The translations under genes and the position numbers were made by a program. The notes under the pieces were generated by a model. It did no database searches. It saw nothing but the letters and a program-made list of their open reading frames with translations, and was not told the DNA's origin. A stretch of DNA of 64,000 bases from a virus (taxonomy: Duplodnaviria; Heunggongvirae; Uroviricota; Caudoviricetes): IMG/VR virus record IMGVR_UViG_3300047160_005224, positions 96,403 through 160,402 of that record, one strand, 5' to 3'. Below, one piece after another: positions 14,121 to 47,262 of the stretch (position 1 is the stretch's first letter; each line of letters begins with the position of its first letter).

Positions 14121-14200
14121 GTTCGCCCTTCCACAATCAATATCATACGCCGACCCGGAAAAAGGTCAAGAACTAAATGTATAGTGAAATCAATAACTTA
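14121..14200 (-). promoter_or_regulatory. sigma70-like promoter (TTGACC-N16-TATGAT) with one AATCAATAACTTAC operator-like motif
   Basis: Minus-strand reading ...TTGACCtttttccgggtcggcgTATGATattg. Member of the 5-copy intergenic cassette. Confidence 0.5.
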
Positions 14201-14222
14201 CGTTAGGCATGAACCTCCGTTG

Positions 14223-14480
14223 TCAGGCGGTTTCAGGTAGCTTTTCGACCGGAAACAGCCGAATAGCGGCTATATGGACTAACTTTGGAACTGCCGTCCA
14301 GCTACGGTTACAGGGCTCACCGTACAGAAAATATTGGCTGTATTGGACATTGATGGAAACGCGCCCTGAATCATGAATCTTTGTAGCAGGTCCAACACAA
14401 ACATGGGTCGTGCTTCCATCCTGATTGGAATAGCCATACAGCCTACCAAGCTCAATCGGATTTCCAAGTGCGTCGCTCAT
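14223..14480 (-). CDS. hypothetical protein (85 aa)
   Basis: Minus ORF. Confidence 0.45.
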   Translation of the reverse strand: MSDALGNPIELGRLYGYSNQDGSTTHVCVGPATKIHDSGRVSINVQYSQYFLYGEPCNRSWTAVPKLVHIAAIRLFPVEKLPETA

Positions 14481-14872
14481 TTCTTCCTCGTACCTTTCAG
14501 GATTGCTACATCGGTGATGAGCGCACCAACTGCTCGTTCCATCTTCTGCAATTGGTCCATCAACAACTTCTGATTGAACTCAAGACGATACTTTTCAGCA
14601 GCCGCGATGTAATCAGAAGCTTCCAAGATCTTGTATGGGATGAAGACGGTCGACTTCTTGTTCCACTCCGAGAAGTATTCAACAACGATACCAGATTGAA
14701 ACGCGTCATCGTTGATGCTCAGAATGTTTGGAGCATGCATCTTGATTCCCATTGCTTCGATGATTTCTCTCAGCAAGGGATCAATATGTTTCATCTTGAA
14801 CGCAATACACGTTCGCGAAAGGGAGTTGTATTCCTGCAAGAAATTCAACACCGTCATCTTTGTATCTGACAT
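14477..14872 (-). CDS. hypothetical protein (131 aa)
   Basis: Minus ORF with ATGA overlap. Confidence 0.5.
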   Translation of the reverse strand: MSDTKMTVLNFLQEYNSLSRTCIAFKMKHIDPLLREIIEAMGIKMHAPNILSINDDAFQSGIVVEYFSEWNKKSTVFIPYKILEASDYIAAAEKYRLEFNQKLLMDQLQKMERAVGALITDVAILKGTRKK

Positions 14873-15135
14873 CAGAGCTTAACCTGGACTTTGGCAGTAA
14901 TGAATGGTGGATGGAAAGGTACACCAGGTCCACCACTACTGCCTGCGGTATGGATAAAGGTGACATCGTTAGGAATGGTACTCATTCCTCTTGTCTTCAA
15001 ATAGTCAGCAACAATTTCTTTCAACTGTTGCTGAGACAATGTCACCGTCGCATCCAACATTATTGATCGCGACGGTGGACCACTGTTTGCGTTCTTCATA
15101 TGTGCTGGACCTGTTGCCATCAACGCCATCACCAA
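14872..15135 (-). CDS. hypothetical protein (87 aa)
   Basis: Minus ORF. Confidence 0.45.
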   Translation of the reverse strand: MVMALMATGPAHMKNANSGPPSRSIMLDATVTLSQQQLKEIVADYLKTRGMSTIPNDVTFIHTAGSSGGPGVPFHPPFITAKVQVKL

Positions 15136-15323
15136 TCCTTGTACATGTCATTGCCCCATGGATCAACACCCATCCCAATGCCCATGATGAATCCAACGGC
15201 AAGAGAAAAGGTTAACAGCGCCAGGAATCCGTGTTGAGTATCAGCCAGTTGGATTGCCAGTGCGCCCAGCAATCCACCAACAATGAACGCGATGATGCGA
15301 ATTGGCCAATCCCTCATCACCAT
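15129..15323 (-). CDS. small membrane protein (~65 aa, 2 TM)
   Basis: Hydrophobic minus ORF, trimmed from 15428. Confidence 0.4.
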   Translation of the reverse strand: MVMRDWPIRIIAFIVGGLLGALAIQLADTQHGFLALLTFSLAVGFIMGIGMGVDPWGNDMYKDW

Positions 15324-16021
15324 CCCTCCATCGGAAACGGCAGATAGACTTGCGCATTCATGCGGATTTCGTTCGTGACGTTCTTTTGACGATCGGTCTG
15401 AATCGAAGCACGACCGAACCAACGCCAACCGTTCTTGCGCGCAGGAATGGCTTGATGGAAGTCGAACGAATCGAACAGGATCAACTGGCGATCCGGGACT
15501 TCGAGTACATCGACGGTTCCGTTCTTGACCATTTCCTCCAGCTCAAGATGCCACTGTCGATAGATGAGTTCGCCATCCGGGACCTGCTTCATCTTGCATG
15601 TGCCATGGATGAATTGGGTCGGTGCGACTTCAGCATTGACCAACCCCATCATATGCACTGCCTTGTACGACATGTTCTCGTAATCAGGCTGCGATGCCGT
15701 CAGGAAATGCTGGCCAGCAGGAATGGGCGGACGAGGAACATCGTCGTGGTGCCAGCCGGGAATGCCAGGATACCAACCAGGCATCAGCATGTGCACACGA
15801 CTGTCGAACACCGCATTGTCCCAGTCGACATGGCCAGGAAGATTGCCGATGAAGGACTTGGTGATCGGTCCGCCATGTTCGAAAGCAAACTTTGCGCTGG
15901 CATTGAAGAACATCGGTTCCTTCTTGATGTCTTCGTTGGGCACCTGCTCAGCAAACCTGACTGGCCTACTAGTAGAACTCATGGCATGCCAGCCGCTGTA
16001 GAAGACCTTGCCTTCCTTCAT
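15317..16021 (-). CDS. putative 2OG-Fe(II) oxygenase superfamily protein (PhyH-like)
   Basis: 234 aa. HxD-like motif GWHHDD and a C-terminal His-x10-Arg (FHQAIPARKNGWRW). Sits immediately upstream of NadV. Confidence 0.4.
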   Translation of the reverse strand: MKEGKVFYSGWHAMSSTSRPVRFAEQVPNEDIKKEPMFFNASAKFAFEHGGPITKSFIGNLPGHVDWDNAVFDSRVHMLMPGWYPGIPGWHHDDVPRPPIPAGQHFLTASQPDYENMSYKAVHMMGLVNAEVAPTQFIHGTCKMKQVPDGELIYRQWHLELEEMVKNGTVDVLEVPDRQLILFDSFDFHQAIPARKNGWRWFGRASIQTDRQKNVTNEIRMNAQVYLPFPMEGW

Positions 16022-17463
16022 ACCGAAGCCCTCTTGCGGATGTTGTCGAAGATGTCGAGGCGAACGTGGGTGTCGGTCGTGTCATGGTGATAGACCGTTT
16101 CGAGTTGATTTCGCGGAGCATCCATGCCGAGCGCGAACCACGCGCTCTTACGCATCGTGCCCCAAACATCGCCATCACGGATCACGGCGAACTGACCGCG
16201 CTTCGACTTCTTGCCTTTGTCGGTCACCGGATCCTTGTAGATGTCGACTTCCTTGCCATTCACGATGCCCCAACTTGCCTTCATCGCCCACTTGAAGGTG
16301 TCACGATTGACTTGCTGGAGCAAACCGCCGCCCATGCCGAAGGCAAGGCAGTCCATCGAGAAGCCACGATTGAGCAAGTTGTCGATGATTTTGGGAATCG
16401 ATGTAACATTGATGCCGTCGCCCTGGATCACGCCGACATACGGCGGAAGGACCTTGTAGCCCTTGTCGTTGATCAGCTTCTCAGGAGTCAGATCCCAAAG
16501 CATCTCGACGATGTCGATCGGAACTACCAACGGATCGCCGCTGTCGGGGCGGATGACGACCTTGCATCCCTTCGCCTTGACTTGTTCCAGAAGACCGGTG
16601 CCGACCCAGAGGTTTCGCACGGCATTGTAGATGTCGTAGGCGTCCGATACCACAGCAAAGATCTTGCCAGGCTCGGTGGCGTACGCATCGATCATTGCCT
16701 GGAAGGCTTCACGTTCGCCTTCCTTGCCGCGGATCGTCATGGTGCTGTGCTCTGCGGCAGGAATCGAGAAGCCGCAGACGTCAGCGTTGTAGTAGTGCAT
16801 GGCAGCAGCGATGCCGGCGATGGTGTCCGAGCCCATGAAATTGATCAGATGGGCAGCACCACCAAGCTGTGCCGACTCATCGCTCGAGACGCCGCGATAA
16901 CCGAAGTCGTGTAGCTTGAACGTGACGCTTGCGGGATCACCAGAACGATCCAGAGCATCAAGGATGTATTCCTTGCAAGTGCGCGAAATCGTGGCGACGG
17001 TCGAACCATACCAGACGCTGCTCAGGATTGCCGGCTCGAAATACGAAGTGAGCCATGCGCACTTGTCGTCGGTGTTGACGATTTGGACCATCGGAGTGCC
17101 GATCGGGACAGGCGTGCCTTCCGGAATGGCTTCGATGTGAAGCGGAAGGAAGCCCTGGTGATGATTGACGATGTACAGCCAGCCATCGAGATTGAACGGC
17201 TCGCCATGAACCTTGGCGAACGCTGCCGCCTCGTTGACTTCTTCGACGGTGATTGGCTGTAACAGGAAGTCCTTGACGAACTTCTGAAGACCGAACATGA
17301 CGACATGTTCGACACCTTGGATGGTCGAGCCACGCGCTTCGATGTACGACGAGATGTACTTGGTACCTTTGGGATACTGCGCGAAATGGCTGAGCTTGTA
17401 GCTGTCCGTCTTCAGGAGACGGTTATTGAGAATCGACATCAGAAACTCCTTCTTGATGGTCAT
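16018..17463 (-). CDS. nadV: nicotinamide phosphoribosyltransferase (NAMPT/NadV family)
   Basis: ~480 aa with the conserved NAMPT N-terminus LLKTDSYKLSHF. PRTase type II length and composition. Confidence 0.75.
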   Translation of the reverse strand: MTIKKEFLMSILNNRLLKTDSYKLSHFAQYPKGTKYISSYIEARGSTIQGVEHVVMFGLQKFVKDFLLQPITVEEVNEAAAFAKVHGEPFNLDGWLYIVNHHQGFLPLHIEAIPEGTPVPIGTPMVQIVNTDDKCAWLTSYFEPAILSSVWYGSTVATISRTCKEYILDALDRSGDPASVTFKLHDFGYRGVSSDESAQLGGAAHLINFMGSDTIAGIAAAMHYYNADVCGFSIPAAEHSTMTIRGKEGEREAFQAMIDAYATEPGKIFAVVSDAYDIYNAVRNLWVGTGLLEQVKAKGCKVVIRPDSGDPLVVPIDIVEMLWDLTPEKLINDKGYKVLPPYVGVIQGDGINVTSIPKIIDNLLNRGFSMDCLAFGMGGGLLQQVNRDTFKWAMKASWGIVNGKEVDIYKDPVTDKGKKSKRGQFAVIRDGDVWGTMRKSAWFALGMDAPRNQLETVYHHDTTDTHVRLDIFDNIRKRASV

Positions 17464-17508
17464 TGGCAGGGAGGCATCTGTTGCCTCCACAGAGTAGATA
17501 GGAGAAGT

Positions 17509-17991
17509 TTAGTCCTTCAGCAGCGGACCAAACACTACATCGCCGGTCAGTTTACGGAACGCCAGCTTCGAGACAATGGACTTGCGTTTCCGCTCGCGCT
17601 CAGAGGCATCCCAATCCTTGCGGAGAGCAGCTTGCTCGATCCGAACATTGATGTGGGCATAGACTTCGAGCATGATGGACACAACTTCCGGATCATCTTC
17701 GCATTGGAAGTAACCATCAAAGAGATTGCCGGAAACTTCCGAGCCGAGTTTGATTTCCTCGTCACCGATCATGTATGTCACACGAACGGAGTTGTATCCA
17801 AATCCACGTTCGAGATAGACCTTGAGAGGACCGCCCGTTGCGGGAATGCTGAACGACAGAGTCCACTCACGATCACGGACCTGACGAGCAGATGGAGCAT
17901 GCCAAGTAAGATGGCGGATAGCTCCTTCCATCATCTTGTCGAACGCCTGCCAGCGTTCACGAATTCTGCGACGCTTCTTGAAGCCAAACAT
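17509..17991 (-). CDS. hypothetical protein (160 aa)
   Basis: Minus ORF. Confidence 0.5.
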   Translation of the reverse strand: MFGFKKRRRIRERWQAFDKMMEGAIRHLTWHAPSARQVRDREWTLSFSIPATGGPLKVYLERGFGYNSVRVTYMIGDEEIKLGSEVSGNLFDGYFQCEDDPEVVSIMLEVYAHINVRIEQAALRKDWDASERERKRKSIVSKLAFRKLTGDVVFGPLLKD

Positions 17992-18443
17992 CAGTAGGTC
18001 TCCGCTTCGCGTTCGATGAGATCGGCAAGCGCGCCGAAATCGAGATTGTAGGTGTCGTTGAGTTCAGAAAGCTCATACTTCCTGGGAAATTTGTCTTCGG
18101 CCGAGGCACCACGCACTCCTTCATCAACTTCTGATGTCAGAGCGTGCACACTCAAAGAGTACCCAACACCATCGTTCCATTGCTGGGACGCTTCCGGAAG
18201 TTCAATACCGTGATCACGATACCAACCCAACGTTGGCAGTGAGCAAGGCTCACTGATGCCGATTGGGGAATTGTATTCGACTTTACCGTCAGCAACCATC
18301 TGCAGGACGCCAAGACAGCAGTAACCGACTTCTCCATCAGGACGTTTTGCTTGGAGGAAATGGCATGCTTGGTTGTATCGTTCCGAGCACAGAGCTTCGA
18401 CCCACTTGGTCAACAGCTCTTTGGGCATTTTGAACAAGCTCAT
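17991..18443 (-). CDS. paralog family member 1 (150 aa; WVEALCSERYNQ...CCLGVLQMVADGK...LNDTYNLDFGALADLIE)
   Basis: Shares N- and C-terminal motifs with five downstream paralogs. Confidence 0.6.
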   Translation of the reverse strand: MSLFKMPKELLTKWVEALCSERYNQACHFLQAKRPDGEVGYCCLGVLQMVADGKVEYNSPIGISEPCSLPTLGWYRDHGIELPEASQQWNDGVGYSLSVHALTSEVDEGVRGASAEDKFPRKYELSELNDTYNLDFGALADLIEREAETY

Positions 18444-18676
18444 GATTCGGTTGCCTTGGTGACAAAGTTATGAACGGTTTCTGACAGTTCGTTCTCGCCC
18501 ATATATCCTAACTTAGACGAAAGCCAATCCATATCAGCCTTCGATACAACCACGAACTCTTCTTCCCAGTTGGTGATCTTTGGAAAGTGAAGGATCGTAC
18601 TTGCCGGAACGGTGCTTGGCAGAAAGACTGCGACCGTGAATCCATTACCAGGAAATGTTCCGACTTCGATCTTCAT
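18440..18676 (-). CDS. hypothetical protein (78 aa), inserted between paralogs
   Basis: Minus ORF. Confidence 0.45.
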   Translation of the reverse strand: MKIEVGTFPGNGFTVAVFLPSTVPASTILHFPKITNWEEEFVVVSKADMDWLSSKLGYMGENELSETVHNFVTKATES

Positions 18677-19131
18677 CAGACACCTTCCACGTACTTCTCG
18701 ACGAGATTGGCGATCTCCACGAACGAGAGACCTACTTCGTCGTTCAGTGCCGAAAGCGAATAACGACCGCCAATCATGTCAACGATGCTGGCGCGTCCAG
18801 TCGGAAGATTGAATGCCTTGATATCAGACAAAGAGACTTCAATCACGATCGGAATTTCATCACACGCCATCATTCCGGCACTGTATTCAAAACCAGGATC
18901 CGGTTCGATGTTGTGCTCTTCATACCAGCGAATGATTGGAAGCGCTGGGCGAGGATTGCCTTCGCTGTCGTCGATCTTGCCATCAGCAACCATCTGCAGG
19001 ACGCCGAGGCAGCAATAGCTGTGTTCACCGGAAGAATCGGTATCCCTCATCGTTCCAGTGCATTGCTTGTATTCGCCAGAACGAAGCGCGGCAATCCAGT
19101 TGTTCTTGAGTTCAGCAGGCATCTTCGACAT
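18676..19131 (-). CDS. paralog family member 2 (151 aa)
   Basis: Motifs WIAALRSGEYKQ, CCLGVLQMVADGK and C-terminal LNDEVGLSFVEIANLVE. Confidence 0.6.
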   Translation of the reverse strand: MSKMPAELKNNWIAALRSGEYKQCTGTMRDTDSSGEHSYCCLGVLQMVADGKIDDSEGNPRPALPIIRWYEEHNIEPDPGFEYSAGMMACDEIPIVIEVSLSDIKAFNLPTGRASIVDMIGGRYSLSALNDEVGLSFVEIANLVEKYVEGV

Positions 19132-19136
19132 GGCGA

Positions 19137-19613
19137 TTAGTCCGTTACTTCGATATTGGGTTCGAGGATATCAGCGATGTGAGCAAAATCGCACTGATAT
19201 TCGTCGTTCAGGATAGGAACGCGAATTGTCCTGATCGCAGATTCGCTTTCCGTCTCGACAATAGCACTCACCAATGGATTGGTGTTTACTATAGCTGCAA
19301 CGGACGCACCCGAGAACGAAATCCCATGTTTGATGAGCCAGTCAGAGCTTGGCAGACCAAGAGAATCACCATCGGGAAAGTGTTCGACTTGGCCATCCAC
19401 GACCATCTGCAGGACGCCGAGGCAGCAGAACTTTCCTTCATTGGTCATCAACTGACCGATGCCCTTTTGGAATTGACCAGAACGAAGACCTTCCAGCCAT
19501 TTCTCTTTGATGATGCGCGGCATACGCATCGTGCATTCGACAGGAGTCTTGACAGGATTGATCACCATGTCGGAGTCGATATGGCAGACGTCGGCAACTT
19601 CGATCTTGTTCAT
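19137..19613 (-). CDS. paralog family member 3 (~159 aa from MNKIEV; ORF extends to 19886)
   Basis: Motifs WLEGLRSGQFQKG, CCLGVLQMVVDGQ and C-terminal LNDEYQCDFAHIADILE. Confidence 0.55.
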   Translation of the reverse strand: MNKIEVADVCHIDSDMVINPVKTPVECTMRMPRIIKEKWLEGLRSGQFQKGIGQLMTNEGKFCCLGVLQMVVDGQVEHFPDGDSLGLPSSDWLIKHGISFSGASVAAIVNTNPLVSAIVETESESAIRTIRVPILNDEYQCDFAHIADILEPNIEVTD

Positions 19614-19623
19614 GACTGATTCC

Positions 19624-20061
19624 TCAGGTGCTCTCGATGGATGCTTCGAGGAAGTCCGCCATTTGCTCGAACGACGCGCCAGCATCGTTGACATGAGCAG
19701 CATTGAACATCCCTTCGTAGCCAGTTCGCTCTTCACGAAGGAACAGCATTGGTGCGCGAAGTGTGCCGTTTGCCAAGTCGCCGGATTGGCGCTGAAACAG
19801 AATGTTGTGTTCCTGCAACCATTCGACAGATGGAAAACTGGCGAATTTGGGCTCGAAGGCCAACGCATCATCCTCGACGCGACCACTCACCACCATCTCG
19901 AGAACACCCAAACAGCAGTAACCGCCCCTGCCGTCACACAAAGAACCGAAGCCCTGTTGATATTCACCAGAACGGAGAGCGCTCAACCACTTTTCCTTGA
20001 TTTCAGCAGGCATCGTGATGCTCTTGCGACCAACAGCAGTGTAACTTTCCATCGACATGAC
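19624..20061 (-). CDS. paralog family member 4 (~146 aa from MSMESY; ORF extends to 20349)
   Basis: Motifs WLSALRSGEYQQG, CCLGVLEMVVSGR and C-terminal VNDAGASFEQMADFLE. Confidence 0.55.
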   Translation of the reverse strand, partial: VMSMESYTAVGRKSITMPAEIKEKWLSALRSGEYQQGFGSLCDGRGGYCCLGVLEMVVSGRVEDDALAFEPKFASFPSVEWLQEHNILFQRQSGDLANGTLRAPMLFLREERTGYEGMFNAAHVNDAGASFEQMADFLEASIEST

Positions 20062-20068
20062 TTGTTCC

Positions 20069-20524
20069 TCAGATGATTTCGATTGCCGTTTCCAGGATAT
20101 CAGCAATCTCCAGGAAGTCATAGCCGTCGTCGTTGAGAGCAGTGACATTGACAACCGTACTGCAACGTGTTCCGGAGATATTTTCCTGCATGCGAATGAA
20201 CGGTGAGCGGCGGTATTCGGAGTCCACCCACAGCTCCTGACCAACAGGCATCGGATACATGAACTTGATGTTGTTCGCGTCCAGCCATGCCATGGTAGGA
20301 ACCCTTTCGTAGTTGCCGGGATGCAGTGCTTCACGTTCGCACTTGCCACTCACCACCATCTGCAGAACGCCCAGGCAACAATATCCACCATTGCCATCAC
20401 ACAAAGCTTTCCTGCCTTGCTGGTATTCACCAGAACGGAGAGCGCTCAACCACTTTTCCTTGATCTCTGCGGACATGAAAACGCTCTTGATGCCGAGGGT
20501 GTCGCTCTTTGTCAGATGACTCAT
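20069..20524 (-). CDS. paralog family member 5 (151 aa)
   Basis: Motifs WLSALRSGEYQQG, CCLGVLQMVVSGK and C-terminal LNDDGYDFLEIADILE. Confidence 0.6.
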   Translation of the reverse strand: MSHLTKSDTLGIKSVFMSAEIKEKWLSALRSGEYQQGRKALCDGNGGYCCLGVLQMVVSGKCEREALHPGNYERVPTMAWLDANNIKFMYPMPVGQELWVDSEYRRSPFIRMQENISGTRCSTVVNVTALNDDGYDFLEIADILETAIEII

Positions 20525-20534
20525 GACCGGTTCC

Positions 20535-21029
20535 TCAGTAGGTCTGGATCAGCGGCTCGAGAAAGTCAGCGATTTCCTCGAACGTGCAGCCGTTGTCGTT
20601 GAGCGAAGCGGCGGATTCGCAGGTTTCCGTCGGAGGAAGCTTGATGAGATTGCCCTCGTCATCTTCTTCCGTGGGTTCGAGTTCCGTGACGTAGATCGTC
20701 GGAACGGTGACGGCATAGCCAAGATGGTCGAAGAACTTGATGCCGTTTGCAGTCAACCACTCCATCGGAGGAACGGCGTCGCAAAGCGGGTTGCCTTGCA
20801 TATCGAATTCGCCGTCCGCTGCGCCGTGCGAAACTTCGCCGCTGACCACTTCCTGCAGGACGCCGAGACAGCAGTAGCTGGCATTGCCATCAGCATCGAA
20901 TCGCTTGAGTCGACCACTGCACTGCTGGAATTCGCCGGAGCGAAGTGCTGCCATCCACTTCTCCTTGATGGCTTCCGGCATGGTGGCAACAAACGGCAGG
21001 TGGGGCTGCGGACGGGCTTCGTACTTGGA
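20535..21029 (-). CDS. paralog family member 6 (~165 aa; ORF extends to 21086)
   Basis: Motifs WMAALRSGEFQQC, CCLGVLQEVVSGE and C-terminal LNDNGCTFEEIADFLE. Confidence 0.55.
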   Translation of the reverse strand, partial: SKYEARPQPHLPFVATMPEAIKEKWMAALRSGEFQQCSGRLKRFDADGNASYCCLGVLQEVVSGEVSHGAADGEFDMQGNPLCDAVPPMEWLTANGIKFFDHLGYAVTVPTIYVTELEPTEEDDEGNLIKLPPTETCESAASLNDNGCTFEEIADFLEPLIQTY

Positions 21030-21133
21030 CATGGGAATTCTCACGATTGGAGCAGCAGGGATTGCCACTCTTCTATTCATACTCACAGTGACTGATTATA
21101 GTCAGTCGACTGACCAAAGAAACGGTTGATGAC

Positions 21134-21469
21134 TCAACGATGGGACTGGTTGTCTTCGTCGCCGGTCAGTTTGTCGATGATGCTGTGGTAGGAAGTCTGC
21201 ATTGCGTGCAGATAGACCAGGCGAGCACAGATGCTCTTGAGGTAGATGCGACAGAACAGGAGCATGACGTCATCCTGCTCCGGAACCAAGTCCGCGATGC
21301 TGGTGGTGAACACCGGATGATCAATCACCACCTCGTAGCTCTTCTCGTCGAACAACGGCGTCAGCCGGCGAACCGTCACGGTATGCTCGGTTTGAGCGAT
21401 GATCTCGAAGATGTGGTACTCATGACCAAAGAGGCGACAGAGCTTGGTCTTCATGACACTTTCCTTCAC
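21134..21469 (-). CDS. hypothetical protein (111 aa)
   Basis: Minus ORF. Confidence 0.5.
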   Translation of the reverse strand: MKESVMKTKLCRLFGHEYHIFEIIAQTEHTVTVRRLTPLFDEKSYEVVIDHPVFTTSIADLVPEQDDVMLLFCRIYLKSICARLVYLHAMQTSYHSIIDKLTGDEDNQSHR

Positions 21470-21936
21470 TGTTCGTAACTGCGGAGTGGGACACGGAGAG
21501 CCGCCATGACCGAAGACTCGAACGCTCGCATGCCAGCAGCGTCGAATCGTTGGGCATGGCGCTGGTATTCACGGCGAAGCGGAAGCAGAGCGCGCTCGAG
21601 TTCATCGACCTTGGTCGCGTCGGTCTGCATCTTCTGCGCGGCGATCTCGGCCAAGGATTCCTGCTCGCGAGCAGCCCAGGCGAGGCGATCAGCTTCGTGT
21701 TCCCAGGTGCGGATCCAGCGAACCTTCTGAAGATTGATCACGCTGGTATCGGTGAACTGGGCGCCAGTGTAGACCTGGCCACAGCGAATCTTGACCTTCT
21801 TCGATTCGAACAGCCATTCGCGGCTTTCGCACTTGCCATCCGCATCGAGAGTCCGCAGAGAGACACCCTTCTTGAAACCCTTGAGGACGACGTAACCGGT
21901 GCAGACGAAATCCTTGGCGATGCCTTCAGTGCTCAT
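21466..21936 (-). CDS. hypothetical protein (156 aa)
   Basis: Minus ORF with ATGA overlap. Confidence 0.5.
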   Translation of the reverse strand: MSTEGIAKDFVCTGYVVLKGFKKGVSLRTLDADGKCESREWLFESKKVKIRCGQVYTGAQFTDTSVINLQKVRWIRTWEHEADRLAWAAREQESLAEIAAQKMQTDATKVDELERALLPLRREYQRHAQRFDAAGMRAFESSVMAALRVPLRSYEQ

Positions 21937-22265
21937 ATGTTTGCCTCAGTCTTTGCTAGACGGCGACGCAGACCACGTTCCGAATCTGCGACAGGAAAGG
22001 GTTGCCAACAAACAGGAGTGATGGCGAGCGGCTTCCATCGCACAGGCAGTGGACCTTCAGAAGGATGCCACCGTGCCACATCGATGCCCCACCAGTCGCC
22101 CAGGCGGTCATTGGGATTGATGTTCTCCGCGCGGTGCGCCATCCAGCATGCCGGCATGACGTTCCAGTGCTCGCCATTCGGCGTCTCGGTCACCAGGATC
22201 ATCGTGCCGTCTTTGGGCGCGCTGGTCATTGGCAACCACTTCGAGCGCTTTCTCTTAGCGGCCAT
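21933..22265 (-). CDS. hypothetical protein (~110 aa, Trp-rich)
   Basis: Minus ORF, N-terminus trimmed. Confidence 0.45.
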   Translation of the reverse strand: MAAKRKRSKWLPMTSAPKDGTMILVTETPNGEHWNVMPACWMAHRAENINPNDRLGDWWGIDVARWHPSEGPLPVRWKPLAITPVCWQPFPVADSERGLRRRLAKTEANI

Positions 22266-22485
22266 CACTTTTCTCCATGTAGCGGCGAGCCGCATACTCA
22301 AGATAACTCGCCGCAATCAACAACTCGACTTCCTTACTATGGTCGAGACCCAGATAGGCGAGACCGAGACAATGCCAACCGACATCTGCTTCGTCCTCGG
22401 TGGCGGTCTGAAGCGACTTCGTGAACTGAGCAGTCAGCTTCTTGAAGCCTTCCAGGTCGACTTTGATGGTGGGTCCGTCGGACAT
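22255..22485 (-). CDS. hypothetical protein (76 aa)
   Basis: Minus ORF. Confidence 0.4.
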   Translation of the reverse strand: MSDGPTIKVDLEGFKKLTAQFTKSLQTATEDEADVGWHCLGLAYLGLDHSKEVELLIAASYLEYAARRYMEKSDGR

Positions 22486-22486
22486 G

Positions 22487-22843
22487 TCACTTCACCAGGT
22501 AATAGTTGGCGAGGAAGTCGAGATGTTCTTCCGTCTTCTCGACTTGTTGTTTGGCTTCTTGCAACATCTTGACACGGCGATTGTACCAGGTCTTGTTGAT
22601 CGGCGCCAACGAGCATTCCGACACCAACGCATACTTGGTACCATCCGGTCCCTTGGTCTTACCAAGGCGCGAAGTGGTTTTGAGAACCGCGCCACTCCAG
22701 CCATCGAGCCAGTAGACCTTGTAGTAGGTGTCGTTGACTTCCTTGACCTGGCACGCTTCCCACGTTCCAGTCCGAGAATTCTTCCGGCGAAGCGCCAAAT
22801 ACCACTGGCCGACCGTCACGTACTCCGGGATCATGCTCTTCAT
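22487..22843 (-). CDS. hypothetical protein (118 aa)
   Basis: Minus ORF. Confidence 0.5.
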   Translation of the reverse strand: MKSMIPEYVTVGQWYLALRRKNSRTGTWEACQVKEVNDTYYKVYWLDGWSGAVLKTTSRLGKTKGPDGTKYALVSECSLAPINKTWYNRRVKMLQEAKQQVEKTEEHLDFLANYYLVK

Positions 22844-23376
22844 TAGAAGCTCTCCGAGAAGACCTTGGTGGTGCCGCGACCGTTCTGGTACAGCACACGC
22901 CCGCCAGTGACCAGATATCCAGCGCCATCCTTGTAGTCACCGTCCGAGAAGGTACGCGGATCCACAACCACACGACTGCCCGGGGCATTGCCCACCACCG
23001 CATGATCGATGTCGGTCGCGGTGTACCAGCGATAGTTCGGGTGGACGTGAATCGACTCGCCGACCCACTTGTAACCTTCGACCACGGCGCCTTCAGGAGT
23101 GGCACAGAATCCATGGGCGTGGACCGTGACCAGGACAACGGACATGTTTCCGGCTTCGTTCGCAGCCAACTGGCCGCATGCCTCGAAGCGAGAGTCGTGA
23201 ATCCACTTATCGAGGATCACGGCGACGCGGTCAATGAACTGAACCTTGGTTTCACCCGGGTTCTGCACGACCTGCTGGATGAACTCCATGCGGACGGTCG
23301 GAACATCATCGGCGCGAGCAAAGCCCGACACCATACCCAGAGCGAAAGCAGCAGCGGCGAACAAGAAGCGTTTCAT
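22843..23376 (-). CDS. secreted hypothetical protein (177 aa, N-terminal signal peptide)
   Basis: N-terminus MKRFLFAAAAFALGMVSGFARA looks like a Sec signal. Confidence 0.5.
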   Translation of the reverse strand: MKRFLFAAAAFALGMVSGFARADDVPTVRMEFIQQVVQNPGETKVQFIDRVAVILDKWIHDSRFEACGQLAANEAGNMSVVLVTVHAHGFCATPEGAVVEGYKWVGESIHVHPNYRWYTATDIDHAVVGNAPGSRVVVDPRTFSDGDYKDGAGYLVTGGRVLYQNGRGTTKVFSESF

Positions 23377-23392
23377 GACGAAAATCCTTGGT

Positions 23393-23500
23393 CAATAGAA
23401 GAGAAGAGCGGCACCAAGCATCACGACCAGATAGATCGCAAAGTCGATCCAGGTGCCTTCGGCATAGAACCAGTTGTGGAACGGATCGTGGATACGCATC
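23393..23500 (-). CDS. small membrane peptide (~35 aa; MRIHDPFHNWFYAEGTWIDFAIYLVVMLGAALLFY)
   Basis: Sub-threshold minus ORF between genes. Confidence 0.25.
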
Positions 23501-23690
23501 ACACAATTTCCACGACTTCGCGAACCTTCATACGCTCATCCACCGGCAGGCGATCGAGAGCATCCAGCGGATCGAGACCCTTGACCGGCATCTCGGAACC
23601 ATCGTGGAGCCAAGCCCGGAACCAGCGCTGGCGCTTACGCGGCAGGCGAGAAACGGAGGAGGTAGCGCGAGCGGTCGAGCGAGATTTCAT
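23499..23690 (-). CDS. hypothetical basic protein (63 aa)
   Basis: Minus ORF with RBS AAAGAGG. A hairpin and the promoter cassette lie upstream. Confidence 0.45.
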   Translation of the reverse strand: MKSRSTARATSSVSRLPRKRQRWFRAWLHDGSEMPVKGLDPLDALDRLPVDERMKVREVVEIV

Positions 23691-23730
23691 TGGTTTAGCC
23701 TCTTTGGTTTATCGAAGCGGGCTTCCCCGC

Positions 23731-23860
23731 TACAGTTACAATCATACGCCCGTTCTTTGGGAAGTCAAGAACTAAAATGCCTGCCGCGTCAATGACTTAC
23801 ACGCTTTTCAACGAGTCAATGTAAGTCACTGATTTGGCAGGCAACGTAAGTCATTGATTC
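23731..23860 (-). promoter_or_regulatory. sigma70-like promoter (TTGACT-N16-TATGAT) with three copies of the AATCA(A/G)TGACTTAC motif
   Basis: Motifs at 23788-23800 (direct), 23821-23834 and 23845-23860 (inverted). -10 at 23741-23746 and -35 at 23764-23769 in minus orientation. Confidence 0.5.
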
Positions 23861-23905
23861 CACTTGGAAACAGGGCTTAACGGAAATTTAACGATTTCTT
23901 AACGT

Positions 23906-24976
23906 TTACAGGCGCGGCAACAATTGGAGCATCGTCTCGATGATTTGGAAGTGATCCTCAAACATGTTCGAAGATCCGATGTCATTCAGCGGAAGCCAGA
24001 AAGAACGCACCACGCCACCATCCGGATCACACTTGGTCTTAAGTTTCGGAAGATCCTTTGTGTCATCCAGCTTGATGAGGAATGCGGTGGTTACAGTTCT
24101 GCCGCGCAAAGAACGTTCCGGATCATCGAAGATCTCTTTGGCGACAATTCGTCCACGAAGAACTTCCTTCTGGATATTGATGCCGGTCTCTTCGTCCAGT
24201 TCGCGAAGCATCGAATCGACAAGCCGATCCTTCTGTTCGACGAAGCCACCAGGGAGACAGTACAATCCCTTGCCTGGTGTCTTACCACGTTCGCATAGAA
24301 GAATGTGACCCGATTGGATCACGACAGCGTCCACCGTCAAAAAGGTCGGTGGATATGGAGCGACTTCCCAACTCTTCTTGTACTTGGAGATGTCTTTGTA
24401 TTCCTCGATCAAACATTGGATCTGATCGGTATTCTTCAACAGCAAAAGCTTGTTGAAGACAGATTGCGGAACACTTCCGTGCGCGTAGGCAAGCTGATCC
24501 GTGAAATAGAACTCACGAATCTTCGTGGCGTCGATGTTGAAGCTTTCACCAGGACCGAGTTCCTTGTACGGAATCTCGCTGAAAGCGAAATTCGGGAACC
24601 AGTCGAGATAACGCGAGGTGTTGTCCTTGTTGTGACCTACCAAGACAACAGATCCCTTGCGCGGAAGCTTGTAGTGGTCCAGAATGACCTTCACACGTCC
24701 ATTGACGCGCGAGATCCACGCCTGATCGCTCGGGCTGTCAAACACATAAGTCACATCCGGCGCAGGAAGACCCAACTCCACGCAGGAGTTCAAGATCATC
24801 TGCTCGCGTTGTGCGATCGTGAATGGATTTTTGATGGTGCGTGGTCCGCCAGTATCACCTAGCAGGACCAGCACTCGATGAGCGATCTTGAACGCTTCCG
24901 AGATCAGATGCATGTGTCCGTTGTGAACAGGATGCATCCGACCGATGACAATTGCGACTTCGTATTGCTTGGACAT
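23906..24976 (-). CDS. natV: bifunctional NMN adenylyltransferase / Nudix ADP-ribose pyrophosphatase (NadM/NatV-like)
   Basis: N-terminal HxGH nucleotidyltransferase motif (HPVHNGH). C-terminal Nudix box GGFVEQKDRLVDSMLRELDEETGI. Confidence 0.75.
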   Translation of the reverse strand: MSKQYEVAIVIGRMHPVHNGHMHLISEAFKIAHRVLVLLGDTGGPRTIKNPFTIAQREQMILNSCVELGLPAPDVTYVFDSPSDQAWISRVNGRVKVILDHYKLPRKGSVVLVGHNKDNTSRYLDWFPNFAFSEIPYKELGPGESFNIDATKIREFYFTDQLAYAHGSVPQSVFNKLLLLKNTDQIQCLIEEYKDISKYKKSWEVAPYPPTFLTVDAVVIQSGHILLCERGKTPGKGLYCLPGGFVEQKDRLVDSMLRELDEETGINIQKEVLRGRIVAKEIFDDPERSLRGRTVTTAFLIKLDDTKDLPKLKTKCDPDGGVVRSFWLPLNDIGSSNMFEDHFQIIETMLQLLPRL

Positions 24977-25033
24977 TGAAACTCCTCCAATGTTTAGTTG
25001 TGAGAGAGGATCAGTTCCTCTCCCAATTATCTA

Positions 25034-26980: not shown

Positions 26981-27054
26981 TGACGAATGTTATGAACATC
27001 GTCCCTGCTATCATAATCACCAAGAAATCAGAGTCACTCATAGTTTACTTCATC

Positions 27055-27093
27055 CATAAAACAAAGAAACCCCAGCCGGTTAGGACTGGGGTT
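27055..27093 (-). terminator. rho-independent terminator after the vWA gene
   Basis: Hairpin CCCCAGUCCUAACCGGCUGGGG followed on the minus strand by UUUCUUUGUUUUAU. Confidence 0.6.
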
Positions 27094-27110
27094 GCTTCGA
27101 GCACTGTCGA

Positions 27111-33447: not shown

Positions 33448-33460
33448 GTGATAGATTGGA

Positions 33461-34830: not shown

Positions 34831-34930
34831 CGTAGGTTCCTTAGTAGATTGAGTAAGATAGGGTGGCGGTTCTGGACTTCGTACCAAGGCAGGTCAACCG
34901 TTACCGGTTACATCCCGCTGCCGCCACCCT

Positions 34931-35063
34931 ACGCAATCATTGTACCTTACTTTCCAGGGAAGTAAAGAGCTAAATCCCTAGTGAAATCAGTGACTTAGCG
35001 CTGCCTTCCAAACCCCTTATGAATCAGTGACTTACGTTTCCTTTAAAATCAATGACTTACGGG
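34931..35063 (-). promoter_or_regulatory. sigma70-like promoter (TTTACT-N16-TACAAT) with three direct copies of AATCA(G/A)TGACTTA(G/C)
   Basis: Motifs at 34985-34998, 35021-35036 and 35048-35063. Confidence 0.5.
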
Positions 35064-37642: not shown

Positions 37643-38287
37643 TTACGCCGTCTTCTTGGCGGATGCCTTCTTCGTGGTCGACTTGCGGGAAGCGACCGGC
37701 GCCTTCTTGGCAGCAGCCTTCTTCGTCGCCGGACGCTTGCGCGCCGCCTTGGTGGTCTCGGCGGGAGCGTTTGCCCGGATGACTTCAGCTTCGTGCTGAG
37801 CCTTGTTGGAGATCTTCTGGATCTTCTCGAAGGCTTCGTCGGCCAGCGCCTTGATGGCATCGGCGCCTGCGACACCGCCCTTCGGGTGCTTGCCGGTCGT
37901 CACCGCCTTGCGAGCCAGCTTGAGCTGTTCGCGCTGCGCCTTGCGCTCGGCACGCTGACGCTCACGGTCGGCACGAGCAGCCGCCTTTTCTTCGGGCGTG
38001 CGGTTGGGCTTGCGTTCGGCGACACGGTTGTACGACTTGAAGTCGCGACCGGTGACGCGCTTGTCGGCGATGCTGAAGTACATGCCGATGGTGCCGGAGT
38101 TTTCCAGACCCAGCTTCTTGCGGAACTCTTCGACCACCAGAGCGCGGAAGTCCCGCTTGGACAGCTTCTCCTTCTTCGGCAGAAGCTTCTGGTAGATCTC
38201 GACCGCTTGGGTCATCTTCTTTTCCTTGCGGTCCGCCTTGCTTTCGGTGACCGCCTTCTTCTTGGCAGTGGTCTTTGCAGCGTTCAT
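37643..38287 (-). CDS. Lys/Ala-rich basic protein, histone H1-like or nucleoid-associated DNA-binding
   Basis: 214 aa; AKK/KKA repeats at both termini. Confidence 0.45.
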   Translation of the reverse strand: MNAAKTTAKKKAVTESKADRKEKKMTQAVEIYQKLLPKKEKLSKRDFRALVVEEFRKKLGLENSGTIGMYFSIADKRVTGRDFKSYNRVAERKPNRTPEEKAAARADRERQRAERKAQREQLKLARKAVTTGKHPKGGVAGADAIKALADEAFEKIQKISNKAQHEAEVIRANAPAETTKAARKRPATKKAAAKKAPVASRKSTTKKASAKKTA

Positions 38288-38381: not shown

Positions 38382-38723
38382 TTACGCGATTCGCTCGAAG
38401 CCCAGAGCTTCCAGGTCATCCAGCACCGGGTTGATATGTTCGCCGATACGGATGAGGAGTTCCTTGGACTTGTTTTCGACCAGCAGGGTGTAGGACATCC
38501 ACTGATCAGCGTCATCGACCGACGCCGGCAGAAAGTCCACCTGGATGCCGTTCTTGTCGACCAGGATCACCCAGCAACCTTTGCTGTCGTTGATTTCCTC
38601 GGAAATCTTCGGTGGCGTCCCATCGGCGAAATTCTCGGCACCAGCGTAACCGTACCAATCCTCGCGAGAGAAATCGCGGAATACGTTTGCCATGATATTG
38701 CTCCATTTGCAAGGGAAGCACAT
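38382..38723 (-). CDS. hypothetical protein (113 aa)
   Basis: Minus ORF. Confidence 0.5.
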   Translation of the reverse strand: MCFPCKWSNIMANVFRDFSREDWYGYAGAENFADGTPPKISEEINDSKGCWVILVDKNGIQVDFLPASVDDADQWMSYTLLVENKSKELLIRIGEHINPVLDDLEALGFERIA

Positions 38724-38740
38724 CGCCGCCCTTCCACGAT

Positions 38741-38856
38741 CAATATCATACCCCCGTCAACCAAAAAGTCAAGAAGAAAATTCCCTTATAAATCAACAAC
38801 TTAGCTGCCTACCTGTAAGTCATTGATTCATAAGGGAGCGTAAGTCACTGATTTCA
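38741..38856 (-). promoter_or_regulatory. sigma70-like promoter (TTGACT-N16-TATGAT) with one degenerate and two inverted copies of the GTAAGTCA(T/C)TGATT motif
   Basis: Motifs at 38791-38805, 38816-38830 and 38840-38856. -10 atatcata at 38744-38750 (plus). Confidence 0.5.
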
Positions 38857-38881
38857 CTAGGGTTCCCGTAAACCCTTGATT

Positions 38882-40352: not shown

Positions 40353-40604
40353 TTAGTTGAAATAACGCGCTCCAGTGGAATTGTAAACGCGCTTGATCAT
40401 CGAACGCGTCGGAGTGCCCAGGCGATAGCTGGCAGCATTGCCAGCGTTTTTGTTGCGATTGGTGTAGATCACATGACCTTCCTCACGCAGCTGACGAATC
40501 ACTTCACGAGGATTCGCGATGTGCATGCGATTCTCCGCATGGTACTTCGTCAGATTCTTACCAGACTGCAAGTAGTTCAAAACACGCTGCTTTTGTGTTG
40601 CCAT
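40353..40604 (-). CDS. hypothetical small basic protein (83 aa, possible DNA-binding)
   Basis: Minus ORF. Confidence 0.4.
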   Translation of the reverse strand: MATQKQRVLNYLQSGKNLTKYHAENRMHIANPREVIRQLREEGHVIYTNRNKNAGNAASYRLGTPTRSMIKRVYNSTGARYFN

Positions 40605-45197: not shown

Positions 45198-45491
45198 TTA
45201 CGATTCCTTTGGCTCATCATCACCAAATGTGGATACAAATTCCTGAGTGAACTCTTGAAGAGGATGGTAAGTGTTCTTTTGACGCATGACCAAACTCATG
45301 ATAGACTCACGCAGCATAAATGTATCATACGGATGCGCGGTTTCAATATCAACTCTATCGGCCAACTCTGCGATCACTGAGTTGGTGAGTGCACAAACAA
45401 CCTCATAATGCTCTCGATAGGATTCTTCGAAAGCATCATAAGGTGTTTGTGGTTTATCTTTGGTTCGGAAGAAATCTACAACATCGCCCAT
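45198..45491 (-). CDS. hypothetical protein (97 aa)
   Basis: Minus ORF. Confidence 0.5.
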   Translation of the reverse strand: MGDVVDFFRTKDKPQTPYDAFEESYREHYEVVCALTNSVIAELADRVDIETAHPYDTFMLRESIMSLVMRQKNTYHPLQEFTQEFVSTFGDDEPKES

Positions 45492-45520
45492 TGGCGGCTC
45501 CAGTGGTTATCCACTGGTAG

Positions 45521-45754
45521 TTATACCGTCTTAGGAATCTCCGCCAGGAAGCGCTTGGGGATGGTGTTGCTGGGATAGTTGCCGGTTTCGCTGTACGTCA
45601 TAGACCAGTGCTCGACGCCAGTCATCCTGCTATCGTCATTGGCGACGCCATAGTCGGCATACATGAGCCGATACACTTTCTCACCAGCTTTGAAGGGTGG
45701 CGAATCCACCAACACCATGTACGCCGGCTTGGTTGTGGGATCGAACGACATCAC
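45521..45754 (-). CDS. hypothetical protein (77 aa)
   Basis: Minus ORF. Confidence 0.45.
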   Translation of the reverse strand: MMSFDPTTKPAYMVLVDSPPFKAGEKVYRLMYADYGVANDDSRMTGVEHWSMTYSETGNYPSNTIPKRFLAEIPKTV

Positions 45755-45984
45755 GAAAGGGTCTCCAAATTGTTATAGTCAGTGGGAGTTTCGAACAGCG
45801 GACCGTCGCACAGCTCCATGATGCCCGTGCCGTCTTCCAAAGGATCGGGCACGACGAAGCCCATTTCCTCGTACTCGTCACGGAGCCGGAGAGTCTCCAT
45901 CCGGCTCGTGTTGGTGACTTCACCCAGAAAGACTTCGCCCTTCTCGTCGTAGTAGTGAAAGGCGTAGTAGCGACCTTTGCTCAT
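45751..45984 (-). CDS. hypothetical protein (77 aa)
   Basis: Minus ORF with ATGA overlap. Confidence 0.45.
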   Translation of the reverse strand: MSKGRYYAFHYYDEKGEVFLGEVTNTSRMETLRLRDEYEEMGFVVPDPLEDGTGIMELCDGPLFETPTDYNNLETLS

Positions 45985-47123
45985 TGGAACACCCTCAGGA
46001 GAATCGTATCGGTGGACGTACGGCAGTTGGATTCGAACTCGTTGGTCGTCAACCGATTGTACTGCGTGCCGCAGCTTGATCGGGTCATGCTCATCAGCGA
46101 CGCCAAGAATTCGGCAGGCTTGCGCACCTTCTTTGCGCGACCCTTGGCGTTCACGATGTTCGTTCGCCGGACCTGGATGCCCTTCTCGTCGTTGGCTTCG
46201 AAGATGGTCACAATCCGGCGCTTGGTGTCGAACGTGATCAGAGCCTTGGCGCCGACGATTCGGGAGGGATCGATGGACGCCACCTTGTATTCGGTGTTGT
46301 CCTTCTGGAAGCGCAGCCTGGAAACCTGCTTCGCTGCCGGGACTTCCTTCTTCTTGCGCGGCTTGCGAACGCGTTCCTTCTTCGCTTTGACGAGCGCCTC
46401 GAGATCACGCTTGAGGTTCACCACGAACATTGCCAGGCGCTGCTTGGTGTTCTTCTTCAGGAACTCGTAGCCTTCATTGAGCTGATCATCGCGACCACTG
46501 TAGAGGGCAAGGAATTCCGTGATGGTGTGCTCGAAGTGATCCAGCAACAGCTTGGCTTGCGTGGCAGAACAACTCTGGCGCGTCAGGGCTTCGTAGAAGT
46601 TGACGTCGATATCCTTGTCGGACTGGACCTGTTCGATCAGGTCCTCGATGTAGTTCACCATCGGCGCGATGCCGGTATTCACCGGACGCTCACGCTTGGG
46701 CTTTTCGACCGGCATGCCGTCGTCATCCAGTTCGACCACCGATTTGTCGCGAGCCAGAAACTTTGCGACTTCTTCGTTGAGGCGAACCTTGATGTCGTCA
46801 TCCAGGATCGTGCCGTTGCACAGCATCCGAGAGACGTAAGCCCAGGTTTCGGGGAACTTCTTCCCCCTGCGATCAGCGAACGCGATCTGATCCTTCGTGT
46901 ATCCACCCTCGGTTTCGAGGTAAGCAACGAGGAATTTCGCACGCTGGTCCGGTTCGACGCATTGCGCGTACCAGTTGAAAGCTCGGACCAGCTCCATCTT
47001 TCCCGGGAACATCCCAAGGGAAGGTTCCCCGCCCAGCTTGATCTGGGCAACCGAAATAGCACGTCCAACAAACTTTGGCTTCTTCGGCTTCGGCGCCCTG
47101 AGCACCGACTTTTTCGTTGACAT
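45981..47123 (-). CDS. hypothetical protein (380 aa, Lys-rich)
   Basis: Long minus ORF. Confidence 0.6.
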   Translation of the reverse strand: MSTKKSVLRAPKPKKPKFVGRAISVAQIKLGGEPSLGMFPGKMELVRAFNWYAQCVEPDQRAKFLVAYLETEGGYTKDQIAFADRRGKKFPETWAYVSRMLCNGTILDDDIKVRLNEEVAKFLARDKSVVELDDDGMPVEKPKRERPVNTGIAPMVNYIEDLIEQVQSDKDIDVNFYEALTRQSCSATQAKLLLDHFEHTITEFLALYSGRDDQLNEGYEFLKKNTKQRLAMFVVNLKRDLEALVKAKKERVRKPRKKKEVPAAKQVSRLRFQKDNTEYKVASIDPSRIVGAKALITFDTKRRIVTIFEANDEKGIQVRRTNIVNAKGRAKKVRKPAEFLASLMSMTRSSCGTQYNRLTTNEFESNCRTSTDTILLRVFQ

Positions 47124-47194
47124 AATTTTGACCCCCTTTCACTTACGTGGGTGACTTCGTTCTACGGAAGTAAGTCTGCCCTAGGAAGCCTCGG

Positions 47195-47262
47195 AAAGCA
47201 AGAACTATTTGACCTTTAGGATCAATAACTTACAAAGATAGGCAGCTAAGTCATTGATTCAT
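47195..47262 (-). promoter_or_regulatory. intergenic cassette copy with two AATCAATAACTTAC / GTAAGTCATTGATT motifs
   Basis: Motifs at 47221-47237 and 47246-47260. Upstream element agttcttgc resembles the agttcttgac -35 context of the other copies. Confidence 0.4.

Follow-up and report, generated by a model that had tools for sequence, protein, structure and literature searches.

Here, we describe six intergenic cassettes in a 64,000-nucleotide stretch of a tailed-phage genome (IMG/VR record IMGVR_UViG_3300047160_005224, positions 96,403 to 160,402; this whole stretch is referred to as the window), in each of which one to four copies of a 14-bp motif stand upstream of a sigma70-like promoter. 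The motif matches the binding consensus of integration host factor (IHF), a heterodimeric host nucleoid protein that belongs to the HU/IHF family and introduces a DNA bend of about 160 degrees. The cassettes are probably pre-replicative, early-type sigma70 promoters with candidate IHF sites upstream, and we consider it rather likely from the sequence that host IHF binds these phased arrays and shapes the early sigma70 promoters of a T4-superfamily phage. An initial annotation of the window had read five of the cassettes as promoters gated by a dimeric DNA-binding protein, with candidates for the regulator among the phage's own proteins.

The window phage is assigned to the T4 superfamily and is collinear with Stenotrophomonas phage DLP6, the window corresponding to 52 to 110 kb of DLP6 in a genome comparison. 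DLP6 is also the closest cultured relative (primase, 55% identity), followed by Sinorhizobium phiM12-type phages and cyanomyoviruses.

The motif reads AATCAR-N4-TTAS, is bipartite and asymmetric, and has CCYT(N3)R in front. The published IHF consensus is the 13-bp WATCARNNNNTTR (PMC9820253). All nine specified positions of this 13-mer (WATCAR-N4-TTR) were matched exactly by the 14-mer, the consensus being that of Escherichia coli; the A/G alternative already seen in the initial annotation is the R of this consensus. Exact matches to WATCARNNNNTTR were enriched in the window (17, against 4.0 ± 2.2 expected), with 12 of the 17 inside cassettes, and in the complete DLP6 genome (34, against 5.6 ± 2.3 expected), with 30 of the 34 inside 15 intergenic cassettes. 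Searches of the literature for the motif strings returned chance matches only.

In a canonical IHF site, a second AA-type step, at which the second proline intercalates, lies 9 bp upstream of the CAA step, and some sites have an A-tract in the 5′ half (PMC1874591). In a position matrix built from 158 non-identical sites (u positions), u5, which lies 9 bp before the CAA step, was occupied by A or T in 94 to 98% of the sites, the steps being TG, TT, or AA. The sites that lead an array had 53 to 71% A at u10 to u13; in the following sites, this stretch overlaps the preceding site.

The recurrence of the motif and of the five cassettes first reported was confirmed. With up to two mismatches, AATCARTGACTTAC was matched 13 times in the window, against 1.08 ± 1.11 in shuffled sequences, and none of 100 shuffles reached 13. 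Eleven of the 13 matches fell within the five intervals of the initial annotation, all of which hold a cassette. When the four central positions were relaxed, a sixth cassette, missed earlier, was found at 7285 to 7344, together with a fourth site in cassette 4 that lies outside the interval drawn before; in cassette 1, the site ends at 14201 rather than at the former interval end, 14200.

The cassettes share a strict layout. Each is in an intergenic gap of a codon-usage gene call that places 97 of the 98 window genes on the minus strand. In all six, the proximal site reads GTAAGnnnYTGAT toward the promoter on the minus strand and ends exactly 18 nt from the −35 hexamer. Cassettes 2, 4, and 5 have one to three extra upstream sites in the orientation opposite to that of the proximal site, and the three sites of cassette 3 share one orientation, with spacings of 25 and 37 bp. 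Adjacent sites are 25 or 37 bp apart. All sites are upstream of the −35 element, between about −53 and about −120, and the core promoter is always left free of them. The pattern TTGAC-N16-19-TAYRAT occurs three times in the whole 64 kb, each time inside a cassette. The features are as follows, the strand of a site being the one that reads (G)ATCAACAACTTAC.

7331 to 7344, plus strand: cassette 6 (new), single proximal site; minus-strand reading GTAAGTTGTTGATC, one mismatch (at W) to WATCARNNNNTTR
7285 to 7312, minus strand: cassette 6, core promoter; TAGCTT (7307 to 7312), 16-nt spacer, TATAAT (7285 to 7290); upstream of gene 6681 to 7286
14188 to 14201, plus strand: cassette 1, single proximal site; AATCAATAACTTAC, minus-strand reading GTAAGTTATTGATT
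14142 to 14169, minus strand: cassette 1, core promoter; TTGACC (14164 to 14169), N16, TATGAT (14142 to 14147); gene 13730 to 14092 downstream
23846 to 23859, minus strand: cassette 2, distal site 1; AATCAATGACTTAC toward the promoter
23821 to 23834, minus strand: cassette 2, distal site 2; AATCAGTGACTTAC, 25 bp after distal site 1
23787 to 23800, plus strand: cassette 2, proximal site, degenerate; CGTCAATGACTTAC, minus-strand reading GTAAGTCATTGACG
23741 to 23768, minus strand: cassette 2, core promoter; TTGACT-N16-TATGAT; gene 23499 to 23690 downstream
35047 to 35060, plus strand: cassette 3, distal site; minus-strand reading GTAAGTCATTGATT
35022 to 35035, plus strand: cassette 3, middle site; 25 bp from the distal site
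34985 to 34998, plus strand: cassette 3, proximal site; 37 bp from the middle site
34939 to 34966, minus strand: cassette 3, core promoter; TTTACT-N16-TACAAT; gene 33859 to 34887 downstream
38868 to 38881, minus strand: cassette 4, extra distal site; AATCAAGGGTTTAC, outside the interval of the initial annotation
38840 to 38853, minus strand: cassette 4, distal site; AATCAGTGACTTAC
38815 to 38828, minus strand: cassette 4, distal site; AATCAATGACTTAC, 25 bp after the site at 38840 to 38853
38791 to 38804, plus strand: cassette 4, proximal site; AATCAACAACTTAG, minus-strand reading CTAAGTTGTTGATT
38745 to 38772, minus strand: cassette 4, core promoter; TTGACT-N16-TATGAT; gene 38382 to 38723 downstream
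47246 to 47259, minus strand: cassette 5, distal site; AATCAATGACTTAG
47220 to 47233, plus strand: cassette 5, proximal site; GATCAATAACTTAC
47173 to 47201, minus strand: cassette 5, promoter position; TTGCTT at the conserved 18-nt offset, −10 element not convincing (CAGACT)

These data support the earlier idea of a phage regulon of putative sigma70-type promoters for host RNA polymerase, each behind a sequence-specific protein-binding motif. The core proposed at the time, TTGAC-N16-TATGAT, is seen in cassettes 1, 2, and 4; its counterparts are TTTACT-N16-TACAAT in cassette 3, TAGCTT-N16-TATAAT in cassette 6, and TTGCTT in cassette 5. The plus-strand block caatcaatatcatac, listed as a separate element, is just the reverse complement of the −10 region (GTATGATATTGATTG) and is confined to cassettes 1 and 4. 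The mechanism proposed was wrong, as the sites are neither an operator nor a palindrome. Lying 18 nt or more upstream of the −35 element and clear of the core, they do not have the position of a gate, and their phasing is of the architectural or activating kind. The right half of the supposed dimer site, TCA(A/G)TGA, falls partly in the spacer and its symmetry is not conserved: weaker sites of the window and sites of related phages read TCAATAA, TCAACAA, or TCAAGGG instead.

Helical phasing was analyzed in 74 non-identical cassettes, some of which are related and hence not independent. The spacing between the proximal site and the −10 element clustered at 29, 40 to 41, 49 to 52, and 61 in one orientation and at 32 to 33, 41 to 43, and 52 to 53 in the other. 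At a period of 10.5 bp, Rayleigh R was about 0.7 and 0.44, against 0.14 to 0.23 at a control period; because of the nonindependence, the multipeak pattern is stronger evidence than the P values. The distance classes are about 10.5 bp apart across genomes and fixed within the window genome, and in DLP6 the second site lies 10 to 11, 20 to 21, or 31 nt from the −35 element. The rotational setting of the sites relative to the promoter is thus constrained, as in architectural or class I-type elements.

The cassette design is conserved in related phages, which argues for a function. In DLP6, 15 cassettes were found, none of them in the structural gene modules; they combine a GC hairpin directly upstream of the −35 element, a TTTACT-N16-TATAAT promoter, and two sites. 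Among viral contigs, the two-site pattern with exact 14-mers matched nine stretches (GC content, 34 to 53%), and the pattern with free spacers matched 60, nearly all with CCYTnnnR before AATCAR and with 20 different spacers; many of these contigs belong to T4-like phages related to the window. Cassettes of this kind occur in more than 60 uncultivated phage contigs. In orthologous cassettes of loci L057 and L059 (70 to 80% protein identity), the consensus positions, the 25- and 37-bp spacing, and the distance to the −35 element were kept, while the spacers and N4 changed. The same held at 36 to 53% amino acid identity in DLP6, L003, and L004, where YAA..YTGATT, the 25- and 37-bp spacing, and the distance to the −35 element were retained. 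The three-site cassette 3 before an AAA ATPase gene is syntenic in DLP6, L003, L004, L057, and L059, and cassette 4 has orthologues in L057 and L059 and at 84008 in DLP6. Thus, spacers and the first two N4 positions drift while the design stays, and the persistence of the consensus positions at such protein divergence points to selection on the DNA sequence itself.

Three further sequences were seen in this survey. Five tandem sites with 27- to 28-bp spacing stand at 14731 to 14958 of L007, and directly after them the contig ends in tandem GAATCCGTT repeats. At about 10338 to 10480 of L030, a viral contig of 26% GC, there are about 20 head-to-tail copies of a 25-bp unit (AATCAAATGATTAC CCTAATCACCT), which fits the search pattern and looks like a different tandem repeat. 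In Klebsiella phage S9a (L010, 2076 to 2760), a 680-bp divergent intergenic region contains one exact site and several copies of another short repeat (ttcaagtaag/ccaagtaag). No TAAG/GGGG-type variant of the cassette was found in cultured phages.

In bacteria, the design was not seen beyond chance. A search of 185,579 bacterial and archaeal species genomes (596 Gb) for the tandem design gave 43 scattered matches, none with the CCYT flank; these are attributable to chance, and a host regulon with tandem sites is therefore rejected. No meaningful match to the motif was found in E. coli genomes. The tandem array would therefore be a phage invention that uses a host-type site.

The extended sequence is also present in unrelated elements. 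When a two-site 50-mer was compared by BLAST with cultured phages and plasmids, short exact matches were returned, mostly intergenic and mostly in elements of Proteobacteria. Ten match contexts were inspected: three were of the att type, two were iteron adjacent, one was upstream of a promoter, and four fell into no evident class. In Psychrobacter phage Psymv2, the extended sequence lies about 50 bp from the annotated attP end amid inverted TGTGATA repeats; in pSymB of Sinorhizobium meliloti, it lies 6 nt after tRNA-Arg(CCG) and is followed by direct GCTACGTTTT repeats; in a Klebsiella phage-like plasmid, it lies beside a tRNA 3′ fragment. It adjoins iteron-like repeats in a 4.9-kb Acinetobacter plasmid and in Vibrio phage 1.076.O, and the promoter-upstream match, ahead of a sigma70 promoter, is in a pelagiphage. 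Arms of att sites and iteron origins are classic locations of IHF sites, as in lambda H′ and origins of the pSC101 and R6K type. Like such sites, the identical extended sequence CCTAATAA-AATCAATGACTTAS adjoins tRNA-derived att cores and iterons; those sites are single and serve recombination or replication, whereas the cassettes form tandem arrays in phase with promoters. The att and iteron contexts cannot be explained by a protein confined to one T4 lineage.

On this basis, the following mechanism can be envisaged. At infection, before any phage protein is synthesized, host IHF would fill the arrays and bend the DNA upstream of the promoter, the bends keeping a constant rotational position toward RNA polymerase and the proximal bend centre lying near −53 if the centre is the start of WATCAR. 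The bending would raise recruitment of RNA polymerase or open-complex formation at the early promoters, as IHF does at Pe of phage Mu. Successive bend centres lie about n + 0.5 helical turns apart (25, 37 to 39, and 47 bp), a spacing that would give the DNA upstream a compact zigzag fold. Activation seems likelier than repression, and we infer that promoters with consensus −35 and −10 elements that must fire at time zero can depend on no factors other than those of the host or the virion. Given that tblastn searches of the window, of 65 loci, and of the complete DLP6 genome detected no HU/IHF homologue, the IHF would have to be that of the host. A weak hit to the HU query recurred inside a 320-amino-acid open reading frame, far longer than the query of about 90 amino acids, which is taken to be a putative glycosyltransferase.

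Several observations weigh against binding by IHF. The motif allows less variation than the E. coli consensus: only A occurs at W, TTR takes only the form TTA with C or G after it, and u7 is C in 82 to 93% of the sites. The N4 spacer takes 20 forms in related contigs and differs between orthologous sites, yet its third base is A in about 90% of the sites and its fourth is C or G. In addition, N4 is nearly uniform within a genome, CGAC in DLP6 and TGAC in the window, which could reflect coevolution with a dedicated protein rather than gene conversion. The 25-bp spacing of sites is shorter than the IHF footprint of about 34 bp. If the bend is centred on the start of WATCAR, the two orientations of the site are about half a helical turn out of phase relative to the −10 element; a centre inside the 14-mer would bring them into phase and would better fit a conventional face-binding activator. 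Finally, the first 50 kb of phiM12 lacks cassettes although its host contains IHF, which marks the design as lineage specific. As to the spacers themselves, CGAC stands at almost every site of all 15 DLP6 cassettes (L072 to L075), with a few CCAC or GGAC, and the window has TGAC, TAAC, or CAAC; we take this within-genome uniformity to be concerted evolution of the cassettes.

Most of these points would suit a phage-encoded, possibly virion-delivered protein that recognizes two parts of the 14-mer, AATCAR and ASTTAS, in neighbouring major grooves and activates or times the promoters, an explanation we regard as possible but unlikely. It would account for the information content of the motif in excess of the IHF consensus, for the N4 uniformity per genome, and, if the protein were centred within the 14-mer, for the coinciding phases of the two orientations. 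It would also suit the restriction of the design to a single lineage of T4-like phages, comprising DLP6, the window phage, and IMG/VR relatives, and its absence from the 596 Gb of bacterial genomes and from positions 1 to 50 kb of phiM12. However, unrelated temperate phages and plasmids of alpha- and gammaproteobacteria have the extended sequence in their att arms and iteron origins, and an activator made by the phage would be unavailable at time zero for promoters of immediate-early appearance.

Nor did the phage proteins named as candidates in the initial annotation track the motif, which is an exact IHF consensus match. The most concrete of them is the 83-amino-acid protein at 40353 to 40604, a winged helix (Pfam HTH_39, E value of 1.8e-9) conserved in DLP6 (AAY80_108) and L057, with further homologues limited to Melnitz/Mosig and the pelagimyophage HTVC008M. 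It was rejected as the regulator, as HTVC008M has the homologue but no cassettes between positions 50 and 100 kb, the 50 kb in which the gene lies. The 63-amino-acid protein (23499 to 23690) and the lysine/alanine-rich protein (37643 to 38287) matched no family and thus no DNA-binding family. The latter, of 214 amino acids with lysine/alanine-rich tails at both ends, recalls histone H1-like and nucleoid proteins, and its DLP6 homologue (AAY80_116) is only a partial one. Searches of viral contigs with this protein and with the winged helix returned close relatives only, or nothing. The AAA ATPase at 33859 to 34887 was considered as an autoregulating binder; it keeps the triple-site cassette in four lineages and has weak matches to P-loop/Hda-like models only. 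It was rejected as well, being a general T4-family gene that is found in T4 and in 1310 records. Binding by a phage protein is thus judged unlikely, and a host protein is most likely on present evidence.

A conserved host DNA-binding protein other than IHF is an improbable alternative. The spread of the motif over elements of several proteobacterial classes would fit it as well, as would the conserved positions beyond the IHF consensus. Against this, nine of nine specified IHF positions are matched with the right spacing and degeneracy, which by our estimate an arbitrary motif would do by chance with a probability of about 1e-4, and att arms and origins are where IHF sites are classically found. 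We know of no other host factor with this consensus.

The repeats might instead persist mainly as mobile or recombinogenic cassette sequence, as copy-paste homology without a binding function of their own. T4-type phages do have promoter/stem-loop cassettes that mediate shuffling, the PeSL elements (Arbiol 2010, PMC2839356; Comeau 2014, PMC4122927), and the hairpin and promoter of the DLP6 cassettes, the homogenized N4, and the triple-site cassette that moved with its gene between DLP6 and the window agree with this. It is nevertheless very improbable as the whole explanation, as exact consensus positions amid drifting spacers at 36 to 53% protein identity require sequence selection and helical phasing is meaningless for recombination. 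A recombinogenic role is compatible with IHF binding as a second role, and the repeated cassettes probably double as homology for modular gene shuffling, like PeSL elements. The initial annotation had raised the motif being part of a longer mobile repeat at non-promoter sites: it is indeed part of a longer, PeSL-akin cassette, but within the lineage it keeps its promoter context.

That the motif itself is a phage-specific promoter is scarcely tenable: repeats do precede gene clusters in DLP6 (PMC5349666), but they stand in both orientations upstream of codirectional genes (in the window, within cassettes 2, 4, and 5) and in tandem 25 bp apart, a canonical −35/−10 pair follows them at fixed phase, and no phage RNA polymerase is annotated in DLP6. 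In the DLP6 paper, PHIRE repeats were reported as 25 "phage promoters," 22 of them in groups of two (Peters et al. 2017, PMC5349666). By position and pairing, these are the same repeats as ours, standing before AAY80_058, 060, 113, 121, 131, and others; the IHF consensus, the adjacent sigma70 promoter, the phasing, and the wider distribution are not mentioned there (PMC5349666). Orientation, tandem arrangement, and the adjacent −35/−10 elements argue against the promoter reading of the DLP6 repeats. T4-type late promoters have a −10 element of the TATAAATA type, and this sequence is absent from the window.

IHF-stimulated early promoters of phages include lambda pL. In another, Pe of phage Mu, deletion of the IHF site lowers transcription (PMC3820752). 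The cassettes resemble Mu Pe in having a host IHF-type site upstream of a sigma70 early promoter. They differ in forming a whole regulon (six cassettes in 64 kb, 15 in DLP6), in having one to four sites per promoter at fixed 25- or 37-bp spacing with a putative proximal bend centre near −53, and in belonging to a lytic, T4-type phage.

The other close parallel is the PeSL cassette, which joins a stem-loop to a sigma70 early promoter of the T4/PST type, TTTACW-N17-TAYWAT, with only an AT-rich region and no IHF-type repeats upstream (PMC4122927). Like PeSL elements, the window cassettes are repeated intergenic composites with sigma70-like early promoters before small genes, and the DLP6 cassettes have their stem-loop just upstream of the −35 element. 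Unlike them, window cassettes 1 and 2 have the proximal site at the position of the stem-loop: in a scan of 14000 to 33999, no terminator-like site was found upstream of these two promoters. At 27010 to 27093, a strong terminator hairpin (27068 to 27093) is followed by GTGACT-N16-TATGAT, with no IHF-type sites; this unit, which corresponds to the DLP6 two-site cassette 95508 after a Ro-like RNA-binding protein gene, looks like a PeSL-like unit without IHF-type sites.

At T4 middle promoters, the MotA box replaces the −35 element at −30 and requires phage MotA and AsiA. Here, too, an extra DNA motif marks a promoter class in the T4 family, whereas the −35 element (TTGAC/TTTAC) is present 16 nt from the −10 element and the motif lies at −53 and beyond. 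No MotA or AsiA is annotated in DLP6.

Directly after the −10 element, in the predicted start or leader region, a conserved block was seen at 14124 to 14141 and 38727 to 38744 and also at 34925 to 34938, at 7270 to 7284, and in DLP6 cassettes. The sequence ATTGAT(T/C)GTGGAAGGGCG is identical in cassettes 1 and 4 despite unrelated downstream genes; that these genes are paralogues, which might have explained the identical 18-nt leader, was rejected on their dissimilar sequences. A GTAGGG(Y)G core is also shared by cassettes 3 and 6, L057, and many of the DLP6 cassettes (tGTAGGGTGAGG). In cassette 6, the listed ATG of the reading frame 6681 to 7286 is made by the last bases of the −10 element (TATAATG); because it overlaps the −10 element, the true start codon must lie further downstream. 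The gene behind cassette 3 encodes an AAA ATPase of the T4 nrdC.10/11 type. Cassette 5 lies between a RuvC-like gene (47251 to 47790) and gene 45981 to 47123, the same position as that of DLP6 cassette 74439.

PHROG matches in the window included NrdA, NrdB, a gp61-type primase, nicotinamide phosphoribosyltransferase, a tail fibre protein, and a RuvC-like resolvase. Densely arrayed within the first 11.7 kb (58 to 11727) are 33 tRNA genes identified by ARAGORN, to which Rfam added tRNA candidates at 7725 to 7800 and 8398 to 8469. An isolated exact IHF-consensus match, AATCAATCCGTTAC at 2353 to 2366, lies 5 nt upstream of tRNA-Asp (2272 to 2348) without a recognizable promoter; it may be a chance match, about four exact matches being expected in the window. 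The region also encodes a permuted two-piece tmRNA with the tag ANDDTFEVRLAA, which matched the betaproteobacterial model RF01850 (100 bits) and RF04321 and may indicate a betaproteobacterial host. Betaproteobacteria possess IHF, as does Stenotrophomonas, the host genus of DLP6.

The finding combines known kinds of element, IHF-assisted promoters and PeSL-like cassettes. More speculatively, this T4-like lineage might have exchanged the UP-element and MotA logic of T4 for phased arrays of host IHF sites as a zigzag early enhancer, or a virion-borne protein might have converged on IHF-like specificity; we offer this as a tentative idea with the odds against it. The upstream module would also correct the published view of the DLP6 repeats as promoters. 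Natural phased arrays of several IHF sites would also allow consecutive sharp bends in promoter architecture to be studied.

The pre-replicative transcription of T4-superfamily phages outside the enteric group is poorly known, and the conserved, readily recognized upstream module should allow early promoters to be annotated directly in this lineage, including many uncultivated phages. It also offers a testable case of a lytic phage that would depend on a host nucleoid protein, which bears on which host strains to choose in Stenotrophomonas phage therapy with DLP6-like phages. If the proposal is true, the zigzag enhancer would tie the take-off of the phage to the IHF level of the host, i.e., to its growth state.

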